The notes below the pieces were generated by a model. It searched no databases. It was not told the DNA's origin and was given only the letters and a program-made list of their open reading frames with translations. Shown here piece after piece: positions 17,816 to 23,524 of a DNA stretch of 64,000 nt (within the stretch, counting starts at the first letter, position 1; each line of letters opens with the position of its first letter). Position numbers and translations under genes: made by a program. Location: NCBI GenBank assembly GCA_900315605.1, contig OMZU01000003.1, forward strand, positions 12,057-76,056. The letters are read 5' to 3'. This stretch comes from an uncultured Eubacteriales bacterium (lineage in GTDB: Bacteria > Bacillota > Clostridia > Oscillospirales > Acutalibacteraceae).

Positions 17816-18457
17816 ATGGGAGATATTGCTATTAATACTGAAGCTTATAAAGCCATACTCGATTTGTCTGACAAATATGCAGCTGATTTAAAAAACCAAA
17901 TTGATTTGCGTACAGAAGAAATGAAGAGCGATGATAAATCTCATTATCTTATATATAAAGTACTTGGCGTTTCCGACAAAGAAGGCAACCTCATAGATTT
18001 GTATCAAAACAAAGGGCGTTTTCTTTACAAGTATGCAGGAGCGTTTTTAGAAGAAGCCGCGATGTATTGTATCAAATACAAGTATCCCGAAGCCGTTAAA
18101 TCAAAAATACCAAATACTGTCGGAGCCCGTCCAAAAACCTTTGAAATAGACTGTCTGGTCGGAGATAAAGCACTCGAAATAAAATGGCGTGACGCTACGA
18201 CAGACGGCGATCATATAACAAAGGAGCATACTCGTGTTAAGGTCATAAAAGAGAACGGATATATTCCGATAAGAGTGATGTTTTATTATCCTCAAAGGCT
18301 GCAAGCGCAAAAAATACAGGAAACCTTGGAAACGCTGTATAAGGGAATTGGCGGAAAATATTATTACGGCGACTATGCCTGGAATTATATAAAGGAATTT
18401 ACGGGGATCGATTTGCTCGAAATATTAAAGCAAATTGCAACCTCACGCAACATTTGA
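17816..18457 (+). CDS. Type II restriction endonuclease, ApaLI-like family
   Basis: HYLIY.VLG, YQNKGRFLYKYAG.FLE, FEID..EIKWRDATTDGDH PD-(D/E)xK core; next to an MTase; AT-rich. Confidence 0.8.
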   Translation: MGDIAINTEAYKAILDLSDKYAADLKNQIDLRTEEMKSDDKSHYLIYKVLGVSDKEGNLIDLYQNKGRFLYKYAGAFLEEAAMYCIKYKYPEAVKSKIPNTVGARPKTFEIDCLVGDKALEIKWRDATTDGDHITKEHTRVKVIKENGYIPIRVMFYYPQRLQAQKIQETLETLYKGIGGKYYYGDYAWNYIKEFTGIDLLEILKQIATSRNI

Positions 18458-19659
18458 TGATTTATAATTCAGATTGTCTTGAAGTAATGAAAGAGCTTGC
18501 AGATGCTTCTATTGATATGATATATCTTGACCCGCCGTTTTATTCCCAAAAAAAACATTCCTTAGCAAATTCAAAAGGAAAAAAATATGAATTTTCAGAT
18601 ATCTGGACATCTTTAAACCAGTATTTAGATTTTATGAGAGTTCGTATTACAGAAATGAAAAGAATACTGAAGCAAAACGGCAGTATCTTTCTTCACTGCG
18701 ATACATCAGCCTCACATTATTTGCGCATATTGCTTGATGATATTTTTGGTCAAAACAATTTCAGAAGTGAAATAATTTGGTCATATAAAAGATGGTCAAA
18801 TTCCAGAAAAGGGTTGTTGCCTGCACATCAAACTATTTTTTACTATACAAAAGGGAAAAGCTACAAATTCAACAGAATACTTCGTAATTATTCTGCAACA
18901 ACAAACATAGATCAAATTTTGCAGGAAAGAGAAAGAAATAAAACAGGAAAATCCGTTTACAAGCGCGACGAATTCGGCAAAATCGTTGCTGCCAAAGAAA
19001 AAAAGGGCGTACCGATTTCAGATGTTTGGGAAATACCGTTTCTGAATCCAAAAGCAAAAGAAAGAACAGGATATCCAACTCAAAAACCGATCGAATTGCT
19101 GGAAAGAATCATTAAAATCAGCACGGACGAGGGAGATTGTGTTTTAGATCCTTTTTGCGGAAGCGGAACAACTCTGGTAAGTGCCAAATTATTGGGTCGT
19201 AAATATATCGGAATCGACATAAACAAAGATGCTGTTGACATTTCGCAAAAAAGGCTTGAAGAACCCTACAAAACCAAGTCTGTTTTATTGCAGGTCGGAG
19301 AAGACGCATATAAAACCAAAACAGAAGAAGAGCTTTCAATTTTAAAGCAATTTGACTGTGAAATCGTTCAAAGGAACAAGGGCATTGACGCATTGTTAAG
19401 GAAGCACTACTTTAACCGTCCTGTTGCCGTAAAAATACAGCGAGCCCATGAATCTTTTTTTGAAGCTGTCAATTTACTGAATAATGCAAGTATAAAAAAG
19501 GGGTGCAGCTATGGAATATTGATCACATATGAAACAAAACGGAGCGATCAATACAGCATTCCTTCAAATATCATTATAATAAATCGTTACAGCGCACAAA
19601 TCGAAATGGAGTTGAAAGAAAGAGTGATAAGCGTAATCAAACAGGCAGCAAGCGAATAG
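18457..19659 (+). CDS. Beta-class amino (N4-C/N6-A) DNA methyltransferase with C-terminal extension
   Basis: YLDPPF motif IV before YPTQKP and DPFCGSGTT motif I; TGATG coupling to the REase. Confidence 0.92.
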   Translation: MIYNSDCLEVMKELADASIDMIYLDPPFYSQKKHSLANSKGKKYEFSDIWTSLNQYLDFMRVRITEMKRILKQNGSIFLHCDTSASHYLRILLDDIFGQNNFRSEIIWSYKRWSNSRKGLLPAHQTIFYYTKGKSYKFNRILRNYSATTNIDQILQERERNKTGKSVYKRDEFGKIVAAKEKKGVPISDVWEIPFLNPKAKERTGYPTQKPIELLERIIKISTDEGDCVLDPFCGSGTTLVSAKLLGRKYIGIDINKDAVDISQKRLEEPYKTKSVLLQVGEDAYKTKTEEELSILKQFDCEIVQRNKGIDALLRKHYFNRPVAVKIQRAHESFFEAVNLLNNASIKKGCSYGILITYETKRSDQYSIPSNIIIINRYSAQIEMELKERVISVIKQAASE

Positions 19660-19850: not shown

Positions 19851-19885
19851 AAAAACGCCGGGCAAAAAGCCCGGCTTTGGTTTTA
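19851..19885. terminator. Terminator between R-M operon and convergent nucleotidyltransferase
   Basis: gccgggc aaaaa gcccggc hairpin with tails. Confidence 0.75.
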
Positions 19886-21040
19886 CATCTTTTTTACTAG
19901 GTTGATTTCGTTGATAAGGTTTTTTCTTCTTTTTGTTATGATGTCAAAGCCTCTGACAAAAACCAGAAACGGTCTTGCCGCCTTGTGCTTGTAGAAAAAC
20001 GGATAGGTTTTTCTGTAGAGCTCCGCCGGCGGAAACAGTCTGTACATTGCGTATTTCAGCTTTGAGCTGCCTTCCTTGTCACCGGAAATCTTTTTGAAAT
20101 TGTTTTCAATATACAGATCTTCCGTACCGTAAACGCCCGAAATAATCATCCTGTCAAGCAGGTCGGCTTCCTCTTGGGTTAGCTTGACCTGTCCGTTGAG
20201 CGCGCTTTCCGAAAACAGCTTAACGGAAAGCTTTCTCATGAGCTGTTCCTCGTCATAAACGCCGAGCTTTTTGAACTCGCCTTCTATATACGCAAAATCA
20301 ATATTGCTTTTGTTGATGCAGACGTACAGATCTACAAGCGTGCGCAGTCCCGTGCCGCTGTAACGGATGTGCTTTACGGCGTGAACCACAAAATACACAT
20401 AGAAATCATTATCATTAAAGCGATACTCGTACTCCTTGCCCTCTACCCTTTCGAGTCTGTCCTGCTTTACATTTTTGTAGTAATCGTACCATACCTCTTG
20501 CTTGTTATCAACAAGAGCCCTGTGCATTTCAAAGTTATATACAGGCTGCTTGAAATATATATCCTCGTCATTTCCGTTGAAATCCTCGGTTTTGTAGCCG
20601 TTGGCGTTCATCAAATCCCTGACAAGCTCCGCCTTTTCCGGATCAAAAAGCACGTCAACATCCGAGCAACGTCTCAGCAAAGGATTGGGATAATAGTTGC
20701 TGATAATATAGCCCTTTAGCGGCATGTGCCAGACTTTGTTGTTCTCCAAAAGCGCGAGAACGTTTTGGCGTTCGGCATTAAAGAGCATGTTTGTGCGAAT
20801 GGTCTGGTTTCTCTTTTCTTCCCAAGCACGAGCCTGAGCCTCCGAAAACAGCGAGCGGTCATTCAGCGCGCTGCCGAGAGCCTCGGCAATAACAGCAGCC
20901 AGGCTGTGCACCTCTGCCTGCTCCATAAGATCGTCTGCGTCAAGTCCGCTGAGCATTGCAGGATCGGCTTTCTTGCCGTTCATGGTGCAGCAGACCAGAT
21001 ACAAAATAAGGCTGTAGGTTTTTGATGAAATGTTCAGCAT
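19883..21040 (-). CDS. Uncharacterised nucleotidyltransferase (NTP_transf_5-like)
   Basis: MPLKG, YP...R.CSDVDVL, FEMHRAL, H..KH....GTGLR.LVD. Confidence 0.88.
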   Translation of the reverse strand: MLNISSKTYSLILYLVCCTMNGKKADPAMLSGLDADDLMEQAEVHSLAAVIAEALGSALNDRSLFSEAQARAWEEKRNQTIRTNMLFNAERQNVLALLENNKVWHMPLKGYIISNYYPNPLLRRCSDVDVLFDPEKAELVRDLMNANGYKTEDFNGNDEDIYFKQPVYNFEMHRALVDNKQEVWYDYYKNVKQDRLERVEGKEYEYRFNDNDFYVYFVVHAVKHIRYSGTGLRTLVDLYVCINKSNIDFAYIEGEFKKLGVYDEEQLMRKLSVKLFSESALNGQVKLTQEEADLLDRMIISGVYGTEDLYIENNFKKISGDKEGSSKLKYAMYRLFPPAELYRKTYPFFYKHKAARPFLVFVRGFDIITKRRKNLINEINLVKKM

Positions 21041-21060
21041 TTTTTATCCCTCAGATTGTT

Positions 21061-21095
21061 AAAGGGCAGCAATGAGTTTTTAGAGGTGCCCTTTA
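21061..21095. repeat. Solo end of family C element
   Basis: gtttttagaggtgccct at 21076-21092 is the exact reverse complement of 55135-55151. Confidence 0.7.
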
Positions 21096-21149
21096 GATTT
21101 TGGCACTCCGCAGGGAGCGAAGCTTGGCAAAGGCTGCATATGCTTGCCT

Positions 21150-21614
21150 TTACTTTCCGCGAAGCTTGTTTATCAGCTTGTGAATCGGAATCCAAATATA
21201 TTTTTTTACAAATATCCTTACAGGGGTCAAAAACATCCAGATACTGACATACCAAAGATAGCCCTTGTCCGTCACGCTGTGCCTTTTGCCCTTGTGAACA
21301 AACTCGGTCATAACGGCGATGACCTGATCTTCTTTGACGTCCGGCTCCTTTACAAGAAGGTTGTCGCCGAGAAAATCATAGCCGTTGTCCTTGACCTTGA
21401 TGATTCTGTGGAGAATATATTTGTGCTCGGGACCGACATACATTGCCACGTCGTATTTTTTGCATCTGGTGTTTTTATCCTTCTTTTTGAGGATGACCAT
21501 ATCCCTGCCCTGCTTGATAAGCGGCAGCATACTAACGCCCTGGTTGGCATAGGTCAGCTCGCCGTAGGTATCAAGATATTCTTCAAAGCTCATTTTGTTA
21601 GCTGTAGGATCCAT
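21150..21614 (-). CDS. S24/S26-family peptidase-like protein
   Basis: GVSMLPLI serine motif, ILHRII, GDN. Confidence 0.85.
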   Translation of the reverse strand: MDPTANKMSFEEYLDTYGELTYANQGVSMLPLIKQGRDMVILKKKDKNTRCKKYDVAMYVGPEHKYILHRIIKVKDNGYDFLGDNLLVKEPDVKEDQVIAVMTEFVHKGKRHSVTDKGYLWYVSIWMFLTPVRIFVKKYIWIPIHKLINKLRGK

Positions 21615-21619
21615 AATTA

Positions 21620-22363
21620 TCAGTCTTTCATTCCGTTATAAGCAATTCTCGCCGCGCTGCGCTTCATGTTGCAGCCCAGTTTATAAAAATCAACGTGTTT
21701 TGAGAGTGTGTTGAGAAGCTGCATAGTCTTTGCGATTTTCTGCGGACTGCTGCTGCGGTAGGTTTGCTTAAAGAGCACCGGAAGCATTTCTTCAAAGGAA
21801 ACCTTTTCAATGTGAGTTTCTTCGGCACGGCTGAGCGAGCAAATCGCCTTTAGCGGAAGGATTATATTCTCGCCGAGATTGTGCTTTCCGTTCCAGGGTG
21901 TTCCGCAGATCCTAACGCCGTCCTCGCGAATAATGATAAGCGGCTTGTCGTCGTTTACGGTAACGACCTTGTGGCCCATTTCGGGAAGCACCCTGCGCCA
22001 AAGCTCGCCGTGGGTAGATTTTCCCGTTCCACTGGGAGCGGTGAAAAGAAATGTCTGACCGTCAACCGCGATCGCGGAGCCGTGGAAGAGGATGGTGTCT
22101 CTGTCAAACATCGCTTCGGCGATTTGACGGTAAAGTGAAAGGGGCTCAAAATAATCGTCATCATACGTAACGAGCTTTTCACGCGGGATCTCGGTCGTCT
22201 CTTCGGCGCGAGTACGCTCGTAGTCGATATCCTCCTGAGTTACGGTGATCTCGATATCCGGTTCGGCGTCGGTCAAATAATCGCTGCAATAGTCTTTTGT
22301 ACTCTCGTGCAAGCAGGTGACGCCGATTGCTGTTTCGGCTATGTTAAAAGTGAATTTTACCAT
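21620..22363 (-). CDS. HprK-related P-loop kinase
   Basis: FHGSAIAVDG, FTAPSGTGKSTH, NDDKP, GTPWNGK. Confidence 0.8.
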   Translation of the reverse strand: MVKFTFNIAETAIGVTCLHESTKDYCSDYLTDAEPDIEITVTQEDIDYERTRAEETTEIPREKLVTYDDDYFEPLSLYRQIAEAMFDRDTILFHGSAIAVDGQTFLFTAPSGTGKSTHGELWRRVLPEMGHKVVTVNDDKPLIIIREDGVRICGTPWNGKHNLGENIILPLKAICSLSRAEETHIEKVSFEEMLPVLFKQTYRSSSPQKIAKTMQLLNTLSKHVDFYKLGCNMKRSAARIAYNGMKD

Positions 22364-22774
22364 ATAATAAACCTATCCTAAAAATATAAAATTTGCAAAA
22401 CGCATTTTTGCGCATTATCGTTATTTATTTTACATCTTTTGGGATGTCTTGTCAACCTTGACAGAAAAATGTTTTGAAGTTTTGTAACTCGTCAAACAAA
22501 TCGACGGTCAATACTCAAAAAGCTTTGTCAAAATGCACAAAGAAAACCTGCGGCAACTCCGTCCGCTTTGGGGCAAATTTTCGAGGCAATTGTGAGAATT
22601 GCATAATAAAGCATAGTGACTTTTGTAAAAATCACAGACTAAGCCCTTATAATTTCGTCTGAATTACCAAATTACGCCCCTGATTTTTTGTCATTTTTTC
22701 TACTGTACTAACCCCAACAATTATTGTATAATATAAACAGCATATCAATCTAAGTGCTAAAGGAGTTTTTAAAA

Positions 22775-23524
22775 ATGAAATTTGATAATGTACTTGCCGA
22801 AAGAAAAAACAAGGTGATCTACCGCGACGGAGATCTTGCGGCAAAGGTTTTTGACGAAAGCTTTCCAAAGTCGGACATTCTTAACGAGGCTCTTAACCAG
22901 GCGAGAGTTGAGGAAACAGGACTCAATATCCCCAAGGTTGAGGAGGTCACAAAGATCGACGGCAAATGGGCGATCATATCAACATATATCGAGGGCAAAA
23001 CCTTGAAGCAGCTTATGGACGAAAATCCCGACAAAATCGACGAATATCTTGAGCTGTTTGTAAACGTTCAGATCGAGATCCTCAGCAAAAAATCTCCTCT
23101 GCTCAACAAGCTCCACGACAAGATGAACCGCAAGATCAGCGAGACCGATCTTGACGCCACAACGCGCTATGACCTGCACACACGCCTTAACGGTATGCCC
23201 AAGCACACCAAGGTTTGTCACGGCGACTTTAACCCATCTAACATCATTATTGCCGAGGACGGCACCCCTTATGTGCTCGACTGGTCGCACGCAACTCAGG
23301 GCAACGGCGCGGCTGACGCGGCAAGAACATATCTTTTGTTCCGTCTGAAGAATGAGGACGAGATCGCCGAAAAGTATATGAAGCTCTTCTGCGCAAAAAC
23401 AGACACCGCGCGCCAGTATGTAAATCAGTGGCTGCCGATCGTTGCAGCTTCTCAGTCGGTAAAGGGCAACCCCGAGGAGCGCGAGTTCCTGCTCGGTTGG
23501 GTCGGCGTTTGCGATTATCAGTAA
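22775..23524 (+). CDS. APH/choline-kinase-like phosphotransferase, substrate unknown
   Basis: HGDFNPSNII Brenner motif, VLDW; AAGGAG RBS before ATG 22775. Confidence 0.85.
   Translation: MKFDNVLAERKNKVIYRDGDLAAKVFDESFPKSDILNEALNQARVEETGLNIPKVEEVTKIDGKWAIISTYIEGKTLKQLMDENPDKIDEYLELFVNVQIEILSKKSPLLNKLHDKMNRKISETDLDATTRYDLHTRLNGMPKHTKVCHGDFNPSNIIIAEDGTPYVLDWSHATQGNGAADAARTYLLFRLKNEDEIAEKYMKLFCAKTDTARQYVNQWLPIVAASQSVKGNPEEREFLLGWVGVCDYQ

Follow-up and report, generated by a model that had tools for sequence, protein, structure and literature searches.

What do enzymes that tailor a peptide do at a locus where no such peptide is encoded? This question is raised by three genes in a 64,000-nucleotide stretch of DNA from an uncultured Eubacteriales bacterium of the family Acutalibacteraceae (GenBank assembly GCA_900315605.1, contig OMZU01000003.1, positions 12,057 to 76,056; the whole stretch is called the window below). 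The genes encode an HprK-like kinase, a signal-peptidase-like protein and a nucleotidyltransferase, designated here K, S and N. The original prediction, made from the letters of the sequence, regarded them as a free-standing system which cleaves, phosphorylates and nucleotidylates or glycosylates peptides or surface proteins. In our opinion, the operon is very probably a selected, reduced module similar to the recently described systems for linear polyphosphorylated peptides (LPP) and derived from such a system by gene loss. We also lean, by a small degree, towards the complete reading, in which this reduced, selected LPP-like module acts in trans.

The operon and its enzymes

Genes K (positions 21620..22363 of the window, minus strand, 247 aa), S (21150..21614, minus strand, 154 aa) and N (19883..21040, minus strand, 385 aa) are co-oriented and closely spaced, as had been predicted, with gaps of 5 nt between K and S and of 109 nt between S and N. 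Upstream of K lies the best promoter-like site of the region, a sigma-70-type promoter (22427..22455, minus strand) with the hexamers TTGACA and TAAAAT separated by 17 nt and 11 of 12 matches. An intrinsic terminator (19857..19875, minus strand), whose hairpin of 7 G-C pairs has a loop of 5 nt and is accompanied by a T run, begins 8 nt past the stop codon of N. Because they have a promoter and a terminator of their own, the three genes form a self-contained operon.

The prediction that a precursor, a RiPP (ribosomally made, post-translationally modified peptide) recognition element (RRE) and a cyclase are locally missing was borne out. Family searches of the window proteins gave no PqqD protein and no cyclase in or adjoining the operon, and there is no credible small open reading frame (ORF) among all those listed in the 390-nt leader and in the S-N gap. 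A motif regular expression and a precursor hidden Markov model (HMM), applied to every stop-to-stop frame of the genome, found no precursor on the contig of the window. No radical SAM gene is present in the operon or in the window. No riboswitch or leader RNA was detected by Rfam, the only matches being two distant tRNAs.

The protein K is an HprK/PEPCK-fold P-loop kinase of the ScmC family, similar to LppK of the LPP system. According to NCBIfam, its relation to ScmC and HprK is weak (17.8 bits against the TIGR04249 cut-off of 125), while its homologues carry the precomputed Pfam annotation PF27840 'ScmC' and 6,381 database relatives were found at E <= 1e-5. Three motifs are invariant among homologues, namely H94-G-S96, the P-loop S111-G-T-G-K115-S-T-H118 and N137-D-D-K-P141. 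A sequence search of K against the PDB gave no match, and the relation to known kinases surfaced by fold search. The AlphaFold2 (AF2) model of K (mean predicted local distance difference test score, pLDDT, 94.5) has its best PDB matches in phosphoenolpyruvate carboxykinase (PEPCK) and HprK/P (E ~2e-5 to 4e-5), and the designation of K as an HprK-like kinase is therefore supported at the level of the predicted fold.

The protein S is a soluble homologue of archaeal-type signal peptidases (S26B, SipW/Sec11-like), a predicted leader peptidase, similar to LppS. Its motifs G26-x-S28-M-x-P31 and H69-R70 had both been recognized correctly, and the residues G26, S28, M29, P31, H69, R70, G83, D84 and E90 are invariant in 34 homologues. 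The HR in place of KR, to which the prediction had drawn attention, is nothing unusual but typical of the SipW/Sec11/archaeal branch, which uses Ser-His and an acidic residue rather than Ser-Lys. The best NCBIfam match of S is the archaeal signal peptidase I model, below every NCBIfam cut-off, and its family profile aligns to SpsB of S. aureus and to human SEC11A/C across the catalytic motifs. The AF2 model (pLDDT 94.4) shows fold matches to SpsB, LexA and SEC11. With SipW of B. subtilis, archaeal SPase I and Sec11/SEC11A, the protein shares this fold and the motifs G-x-S-M-x-P, H-R and G-D-N-x4-acid. However, it differs from the housekeeping archaeal and ER-type signal peptidases in its sub-cut-off scores, in its gene context, which is of the RiPP type and not of the secretion type, and in its model, where an N-terminal membrane anchor is missing and a short N-terminal helix and two C-terminal helices are present.

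The third protein, N, is a nucleotidyltransferase of the family PF14907 (NTP_transf_5, E = 8e-42), similar to LppN and PsmN. It keeps every residue conserved at >=90% in 39 cassette homologues: K109-G110, D127-x-D129, E171-x-H173, H220, H224, G229-x-G231-x-R233 and D237. The arrangement of K109-G110, D127-x-D129 and E171 is that expected of a polymerase-beta-type nucleotidyltransferase centre, and these are its putative catalytic residues. S and N also occur as parts of one polypeptide. Such S::N fusion proteins are encoded in the same genome (contig C86), in the Erysipelotrichaceae loci L097 and L103 and in other species of the genus (loci L141 and L154; the prefixes C and L denote contigs of this genome and related loci, respectively), which gives Rosetta-stone support to S and N working together.

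Complete cassettes and the trimmed copy

The LPP family was first described in May 2026 (Popov et al., Nat Commun 2026; PMC13381572), and the start of that study was an archaeal-type signal peptidase in Bacilli. The family was defined from about 126 clusters, mostly in Bacilli and having no cyclase, and the model cluster lppA-K-B-S-D-N of Paenibacillus alginolyticus DSM5050 was tested in B. subtilis (PMC13381572). LPP precursors contain the motif Y-x-x-P-x-V-L-x-H-Q-x-I-x-F-E-T-x-x-S, and LppK adds up to four phosphates to Ser3 of the core (PMC13381572). The peptidase LppS (S29, H68, D93) cuts the leader after F-E-T, needs LppB and prefers a phosphorylated substrate; its N-terminal helix docks the RRE-leader sheet (PMC13381572). 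With this publication the co-occurrence of K, S and N has found an explanation.

The window operon shares with LPP clusters an HprK-like kinase adjacent to a peptidase, the signal-peptidase-I-like nature of this peptidase with its Ser/His/acid residues, a PF14907 NTP transferase and the lack of any macrolactam cyclase, but it lacks lppA, lppB and lppD. When read by eye against the LppS sequence (Supplementary Data 1, PMC13381572), S28/H69/E90 coincide in position with its residues S29/H68/D93. In sequence, S also keeps the N-terminal helix of the RRE-linked homologues.

A scan with the K alignment, using one genome per species, gave at least 593 loci. Eighty of them were studied, nearly all from rumen and gut Oscillospiraceae, Lachnospiraceae, Erysipelotrichaceae and their allies, and the counts below refer to 82 related loci. 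HMMs for the cassette families were built in the analysis, and the genes of related loci are our own ORF calls. The gene-neighbourhood survey, which had been proposed as a check, showed a strong co-occurrence of K, S and N across taxa, together with PqqD and short precursor ORFs in the cassettes. Among the 82 loci, all found via K alone, S is adjacent in ~65 and N in ~45, which is far beyond chance.

The usual order of the cassette is precursor(s) (A), K, PqqD (B), S, ATP-binding cassette (ABC) exporter (D) and N. K-PqqD-S are adjacent in 55 of 87 K rows, and an ABC gene was found in 39 loci. The exporter of 560-620 aa (ABC_membrane and ABC_tran) is encoded between S and N, and in the window this position is occupied by the 109-nt spacer (21041..21149, minus strand). 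The locus L009 shows K-PqqD-S-ABC-N, and L010 is a rearranged form with five tandem precursors followed by PqqD-N-K-S. No lasso cyclase or B2 peptidase occurs among the recurrent families of the 82 loci, and no member of the complete R. flavefaciens cassette reaches a curated NCBIfam cut-off.

A radical SAM gene lies between the precursor and K in eight of the 82 loci, for example L027:8640-10001 (453 aa; PF04055, Fer4_12). These eight loci and the ScmC-named family PF27840 of K are common features with the SynChlorMet (SCM) systems (ScmC/ScmD/ScmE/ScmF, TIGR04248-04251). At the same time, the score of K is far below the TIGR04249 cut-off, SCM has no described peptidase or PF14907 partner and the window has no radical SAM/SPASM protein.

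Precursor-family ORFs were found in 37 of the 82 loci, upstream and on the same strand, from one to six in tandem. Their consensus is M-K-E-K-Y-E-x-P-E-M-E-[IV]-[VI]-x-F-[ED]-x-E-D-[VI]-I-T-T-S-G, where D is kept in all of the 53 aligned sequences, I in 52, S in 51, F in 48 and Y in 47. It is followed by a hypervariable, acidic tail (median 12 aa) rich in Gly, Asp, Glu and Pro and ending in many different residues. At its beginning, the leader shows a weak similarity to the model of the paeninodin lasso leader. A comparison of the precursor profile with the PDB gave no match, and a literature search for the leader motif strings yielded no relevant paper.

The clostridial relatives have the same gene set and order as LPP clusters (precursor, K, RRE, S, MsbA-like ABC, N), and their precursors likewise consist of a Y...F-E-x leader block, a nearby conserved Ser and a hypervariable tail. 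The differences are a Y-to-F spacing of 10 instead of 13, an extra block E-D-[VI]-I-T-T before the Ser and short, acidic tails. Judging by the sequences, the clostridial clade looks LPP-like, being the same kind of system in a separate and much larger branch, either sister to the studied clusters or more distant.

The operon of the window is not a free-standing system, as had been supposed, but a trimmed copy of this cassette, whose relatives have tandem precursors, a PqqD RRE and an ABC exporter. The nearest K relative outside the species (82% identity), on the metagenome contig L137, has the same K-S-N layout, also without PqqD and ABC genes; its S-N gap is 87 nt long and non-coding, and its promoter has the same hexamers and spacing. 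The gene downstream of the operon differs between the two copies, being a restriction-modification (R-M) system in the window and the S component of an energy-coupling factor (ECF)-riboflavin transporter in L137. The next K relative (54% identity) stands in a complete precursor-K-PqqD-S-ABC arrangement. At a dS of ~1.2 between the window and L137, K has a ratio of nonsynonymous to synonymous substitution rates (dN/dS) of 0.106, S one of 0.121 and N one of 0.148, so the operon is under purifying selection and is not decaying.

A likelihood tree was calculated for 87 K proteins and rooted by the two distant K paralogues of the genome. The window and L137 form a pair with 100% support in the Shimodaira-Hasegawa-like approximate likelihood ratio test (SH-aLRT) and a stem length of 0.38, nested in K-PqqD-S loci; the support of the enclosing node is 88 and is not decisive. 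Since the pair is nested among complete cassettes, the RRE and exporter genes appear to have been lost. According to the simplest history suggested by these sequences, they were lost from a complete cassette, and the remainder has been long retained.

Complete K-PqqD-S cassettes were also found on contigs binned as Bacteroidota or Synergistota (L062, L064, L076, L101, L102 and L067). On the K tree they are nested among Bacillota, and the 'Alistipes' K of L064 adjoins a Ruminococcus locus. These cassettes may be the result either of horizontal transfer or of mis-binning of contigs.

Precursors at other loci and the proposed mode of action

If the substrate of the operon is not encoded beside it, it may be sought elsewhere in the genome, whose assembly (2.42 Mb, 93 contigs) is 98% complete. 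Three precursor-family ORFs are present at C29:40999-41166, C86:20933-21109 and C87:52907-53038. The whole-genome search for PqqD, recommended together with the prediction, revealed four small PqqD genes, all at other loci (C60, two on C29, and C31), with 41-61% identity to cassette RREs. The C60 gene directly precedes another S gene, one of the C29 genes comes after a precursor and a membrane protein, and the C31 gene stands beside a paralogous membrane protein. On C86, the region 20933-22856 (L013:6934-8857) contains a 58-aa precursor followed by a 485-aa S::N fusion, next to a DegT-type aminotransferase. A third N was found on C53.

The membrane proteins beside these PqqD genes (C29:40206-40832 and C31:273-1091, corresponding to L014:7207-7833 and L019:273-1091) belong to a polytopic family with no Pfam or NCBIfam match, and the two copies are 28% identical (E = 6e-10). 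The family recurs beside precursor and PqqD genes in the K-less cassettes of the genus (L141-L159) and could take the place of the ABC exporter that these lack. One subgroup of precursors (L014:8000-8167, L142, L147, L150 and L159) has a conserved ...P-G-(S/T)-W-F C-terminus and always adjoins this membrane protein. In a second subgroup from the genus (M-N-K-E-T-Y-E-R-L-x-M-D-V-T...) the ends are varied; both subgroups have Y-E-R, in contrast to Y-x-x-P in other Clostridia. The genome also encodes CBM26 starch-binding proteins.

The window K is the only K of its genome sitting with S and N. A paralogue at C85:18613-19401, 36% identical to it, adjoins the gene for the RNA polymerase beta subunit and has neither S nor N nor PqqD in its vicinity, and a second paralogue (30% identical) is also solitary. 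In most species of the genus, the best match of K has 33-42% identity, similar to that of the C85 paralogue, and on these sequence grounds the C85-type protein may represent a conserved form of the kinase that stands alone and serves a different function.

In the genus as a whole, K-family proteins were found in 57 of 60 other species sampled, and complete K-PqqD-S sets in many of them. The strict DNA pattern F-[ED]-x-E-D-[VI]-I-x-x-S gave 27 sites in 16 of 61 genus genomes against one for the reversed control, and most of these precursor sites are on contigs without K. About 20 precursor sites were examined. Where partners are present, they make up, in whole or in part, a K-less cassette of precursor, PqqD, membrane protein and S::N (or S and N), and the remaining sites have no partner gene nearby. 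It is thus usual in this genus for the pathway to be dispersed and for modules to be lost, which makes action in trans plausible.

Since genes for substrate and adapter are missing from the operon, action of the enzymes in trans is most likely, and the three precursors and four PqqD genes at other loci make this the likeliest reading of how the operon works; taken by itself, it is a tentative one. The prediction that the trio is a cleaving, phosphorylating and nucleotidyl-type tailoring set related to the accessory enzymes of paeninodin lasso clusters has held, and no evidence was found for surface proteins as its substrates. By analogy with the Paenibacillus system, K would phosphorylate, probably repeatedly, the near-invariant Ser ending the leader block ...F-[ED]-x-E-D-[VI]-I-T-T-S. 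The leader would be taken off by S, through its Ser28/His69/Glu90 centre, when an unlinked PqqD presents it, and N would attach another group to the phosphopeptide, extending the phosphate. The phospho-acceptor Ser and the cleavage site are proposed from conservation. Candidate substrates are the precursors on C29, C86 and C87, and the candidate adapter is one of the four PqqD proteins (C60, C29 twice, C31). Products, if exported, would leave by a non-orthologous route.

A number of observations speak against this reading. LppS alone gave no cleavage (PMC13381572), and because LppS needs LppB, an operon without an RRE can work only if an RRE supplied in trans fits. LppN had no detectable activity in the heterologous system (PMC13381572). 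The profile of clostridial RREs is closer to lasso B1 proteins of the PDB (TbiB1, 5e-7; TfuB1 is also a better match) than to 9x90_B (3e-4), a chain matching the paeninodin-type RRE sequence of PMC13381572, and to 9x8z_B (0.023), the presumed LppB. A Ruminococcus peptidase of the S type belongs to cluster 9 of the sequence similarity network (SSN) and not to the studied cluster 1 (PMC13381572). With an RRE profile nearer to lasso B1 than to the presumed LppB, the clade seems to be distantly related to the LPP clusters studied so far, and its chemistry may differ. No LppD-type exporter is encoded in the genome, where the best ABC protein reaches 275 bits with the cassette-exporter HMM against 707-975 for cassette exporters.

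The remaining objections come from the genus itself. The precursors of this genome read Y-E-R or Y-T-K, in most relatives Y-x-x-P is found, and RRE binding may therefore differ. Two genus genomes with precursors show no K at E <= 1e-10. The C86 precursor beside the S::N fusion and the C29 precursor beside the membrane protein and PqqD are partial K-less sets, and all four components of the K-less layout (precursor, B, S::N, membrane protein) came together only in genomes of other members of the genus. Because of such K-less layouts, the scattered precursors may not need the window kinase, and it is by inference that we bring K, S and N into contact with these distant precursors.

In a bolder form of action in trans, which seems somewhat unlikely to us, K-S-N is uncoupled from precursor, RRE and exporter and serves several scattered precursors as a hub, either through a borrowed PqqD or independently of an adapter.

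The best surviving alternative, itself rather unlikely, is that K-S-N is independent of RREs and LPP-type precursors and modifies some other unlinked peptide or protein, in line with the original prediction. The absence of RRE, precursor and exporter in two diverged copies of the operon under strong selection agrees with it, and the stem of 0.38 on the K tree would fit a functional shift. In lasso systems, precursor kinases of the PadeK/ThcoK type do their work without B1. However, K, S and N have the same catalytic and family-conserved residues throughout as the cassette homologues, S has retained the sequence of its N-terminal helix, the part by which LppS docks the RRE and leader, and no alternative substrate is linked to the operon in either copy, where the neighbours differ.

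It is less probable still, and on the whole quite unlikely, that the operon supplies only the kinase step to K-less cassettes, its own S and N being redundant spares. K-less cassettes are common in the genus and parts of them exist in this genome on C86 and C29; moreover, the window K is the sole K of the genome standing with S and N, both of its paralogues (36% and 30% identical) being solitary. But S and N are under the same purifying selection as K and are thus not dispensable spares, and the two precursor-containing genus genomes without K at E <= 1e-10 suggest that K-less cassettes are self-sufficient.

A decaying, functionless remnant is very improbable. Three of the six core cassette genes are indeed missing, including the RRE needed by the published peptidase, but the frames are intact, the catalytic residues are kept, dN/dS is 0.11-0.15 at dS ~1.2 and the same layout and promoter occur in a second lineage, together with a near-consensus promoter and a strong terminator in the window.

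The lasso systems deserve mention as the known relatives of the trio. In the biosynthesis of paeninodin and pseudomycoidin, tailoring steps are carried out by HprK-like kinases and PF14907 enzymes (PMC6993621, PMC7533575), and the clusters of these peptides (PadeK, PsmN) have this pair in common with the window, while the related cassettes also share with them PqqD-type RREs and [Y/W]xxP leaders. They differ in that the genome studied here has no B2 cysteine protease or linked cyclase, its leader peptidase is a serine, SpI-like enzyme and the conserved Ser of clostridial precursors is at the leader/core border, whereas the lasso kinase targets a C-terminal Ser. That K, S and N tailor a paeninodin-type lasso peptide from a cluster elsewhere in the genome is hardly credible: in spite of that enzyme pair and of PqqD proteins scoring best, below cut-off, against lasso PqqD models, a complete lasso cluster, named in advance as a finding that would overturn the prediction, was not found, as the 98%-complete genome has no match to Transglut_core3 (B2), its three AsnB (Asn_synthase) homologues on C71, C59 and C18 are on contigs without PqqD, K, S, N or precursor, and the related cassettes have no cyclase.

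Neighbouring genes and significance

On one side of the operon are the housekeeping genes aroK and pyruvate kinase. Directly downstream of it (window 17816-19659, plus strand) there are genes for a restriction endonuclease of the ApaLI type (PF09499, 4e-96) and for a DNA methylase (N6/N4). The GC content of this stretch is 37% against ~47% around. At the L137 copy, the ECF-riboflavin S component occupies the same position, and since the R-M pair is absent there, it looks like a separate insertion. The adjacent R-M pair prompted a reading of K-S-N as a defence system, which was rejected: no PADLOC match was found for K, S and N at E <= 0.01, and the pair is missing beside the L137 copy. Divergently from the operon, a 256-aa APH/RIO-like phosphotransferase is encoded (window 22754-23524, plus strand). 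It matches the paralogous family TIGR02172 best, with a score below cut-off, and is weakly similar to the PD-T4-6 kinase; no link to the K-S-N operon was found.

Summarizing the data, the analysis goes beyond PMC13381572 in three respects: the size and variety of the clostridial branch, a selected K-S-N operon without RRE, precursor and exporter, and a scattered pathway in the genus. Rumen and gut Clostridia contain LPP-like cassettes in far greater number and variety, and their kinase family has more than 6,000 members. The variety includes a leader consensus of their own, up to six tandem precursors, peptidase-transferase fusions, radical SAM additions and kinase-less forms. In the window, the enzyme core has been maintained by selection in the absence of the adapter on which the published peptidase depends.

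If the enzymes do not act in trans, the operon would be one more orphan fragment of a known pathway. If they do, the assumption of co-localisation on which the mining of modified-peptide clusters relies fails here, and service to several scattered precursors would mean a fully dispersed RiPP pathway in a small genome, invisible to cluster-based genome mining. This small and well-sampled genome would be a tractable place to ask about the role of these phosphopeptides.

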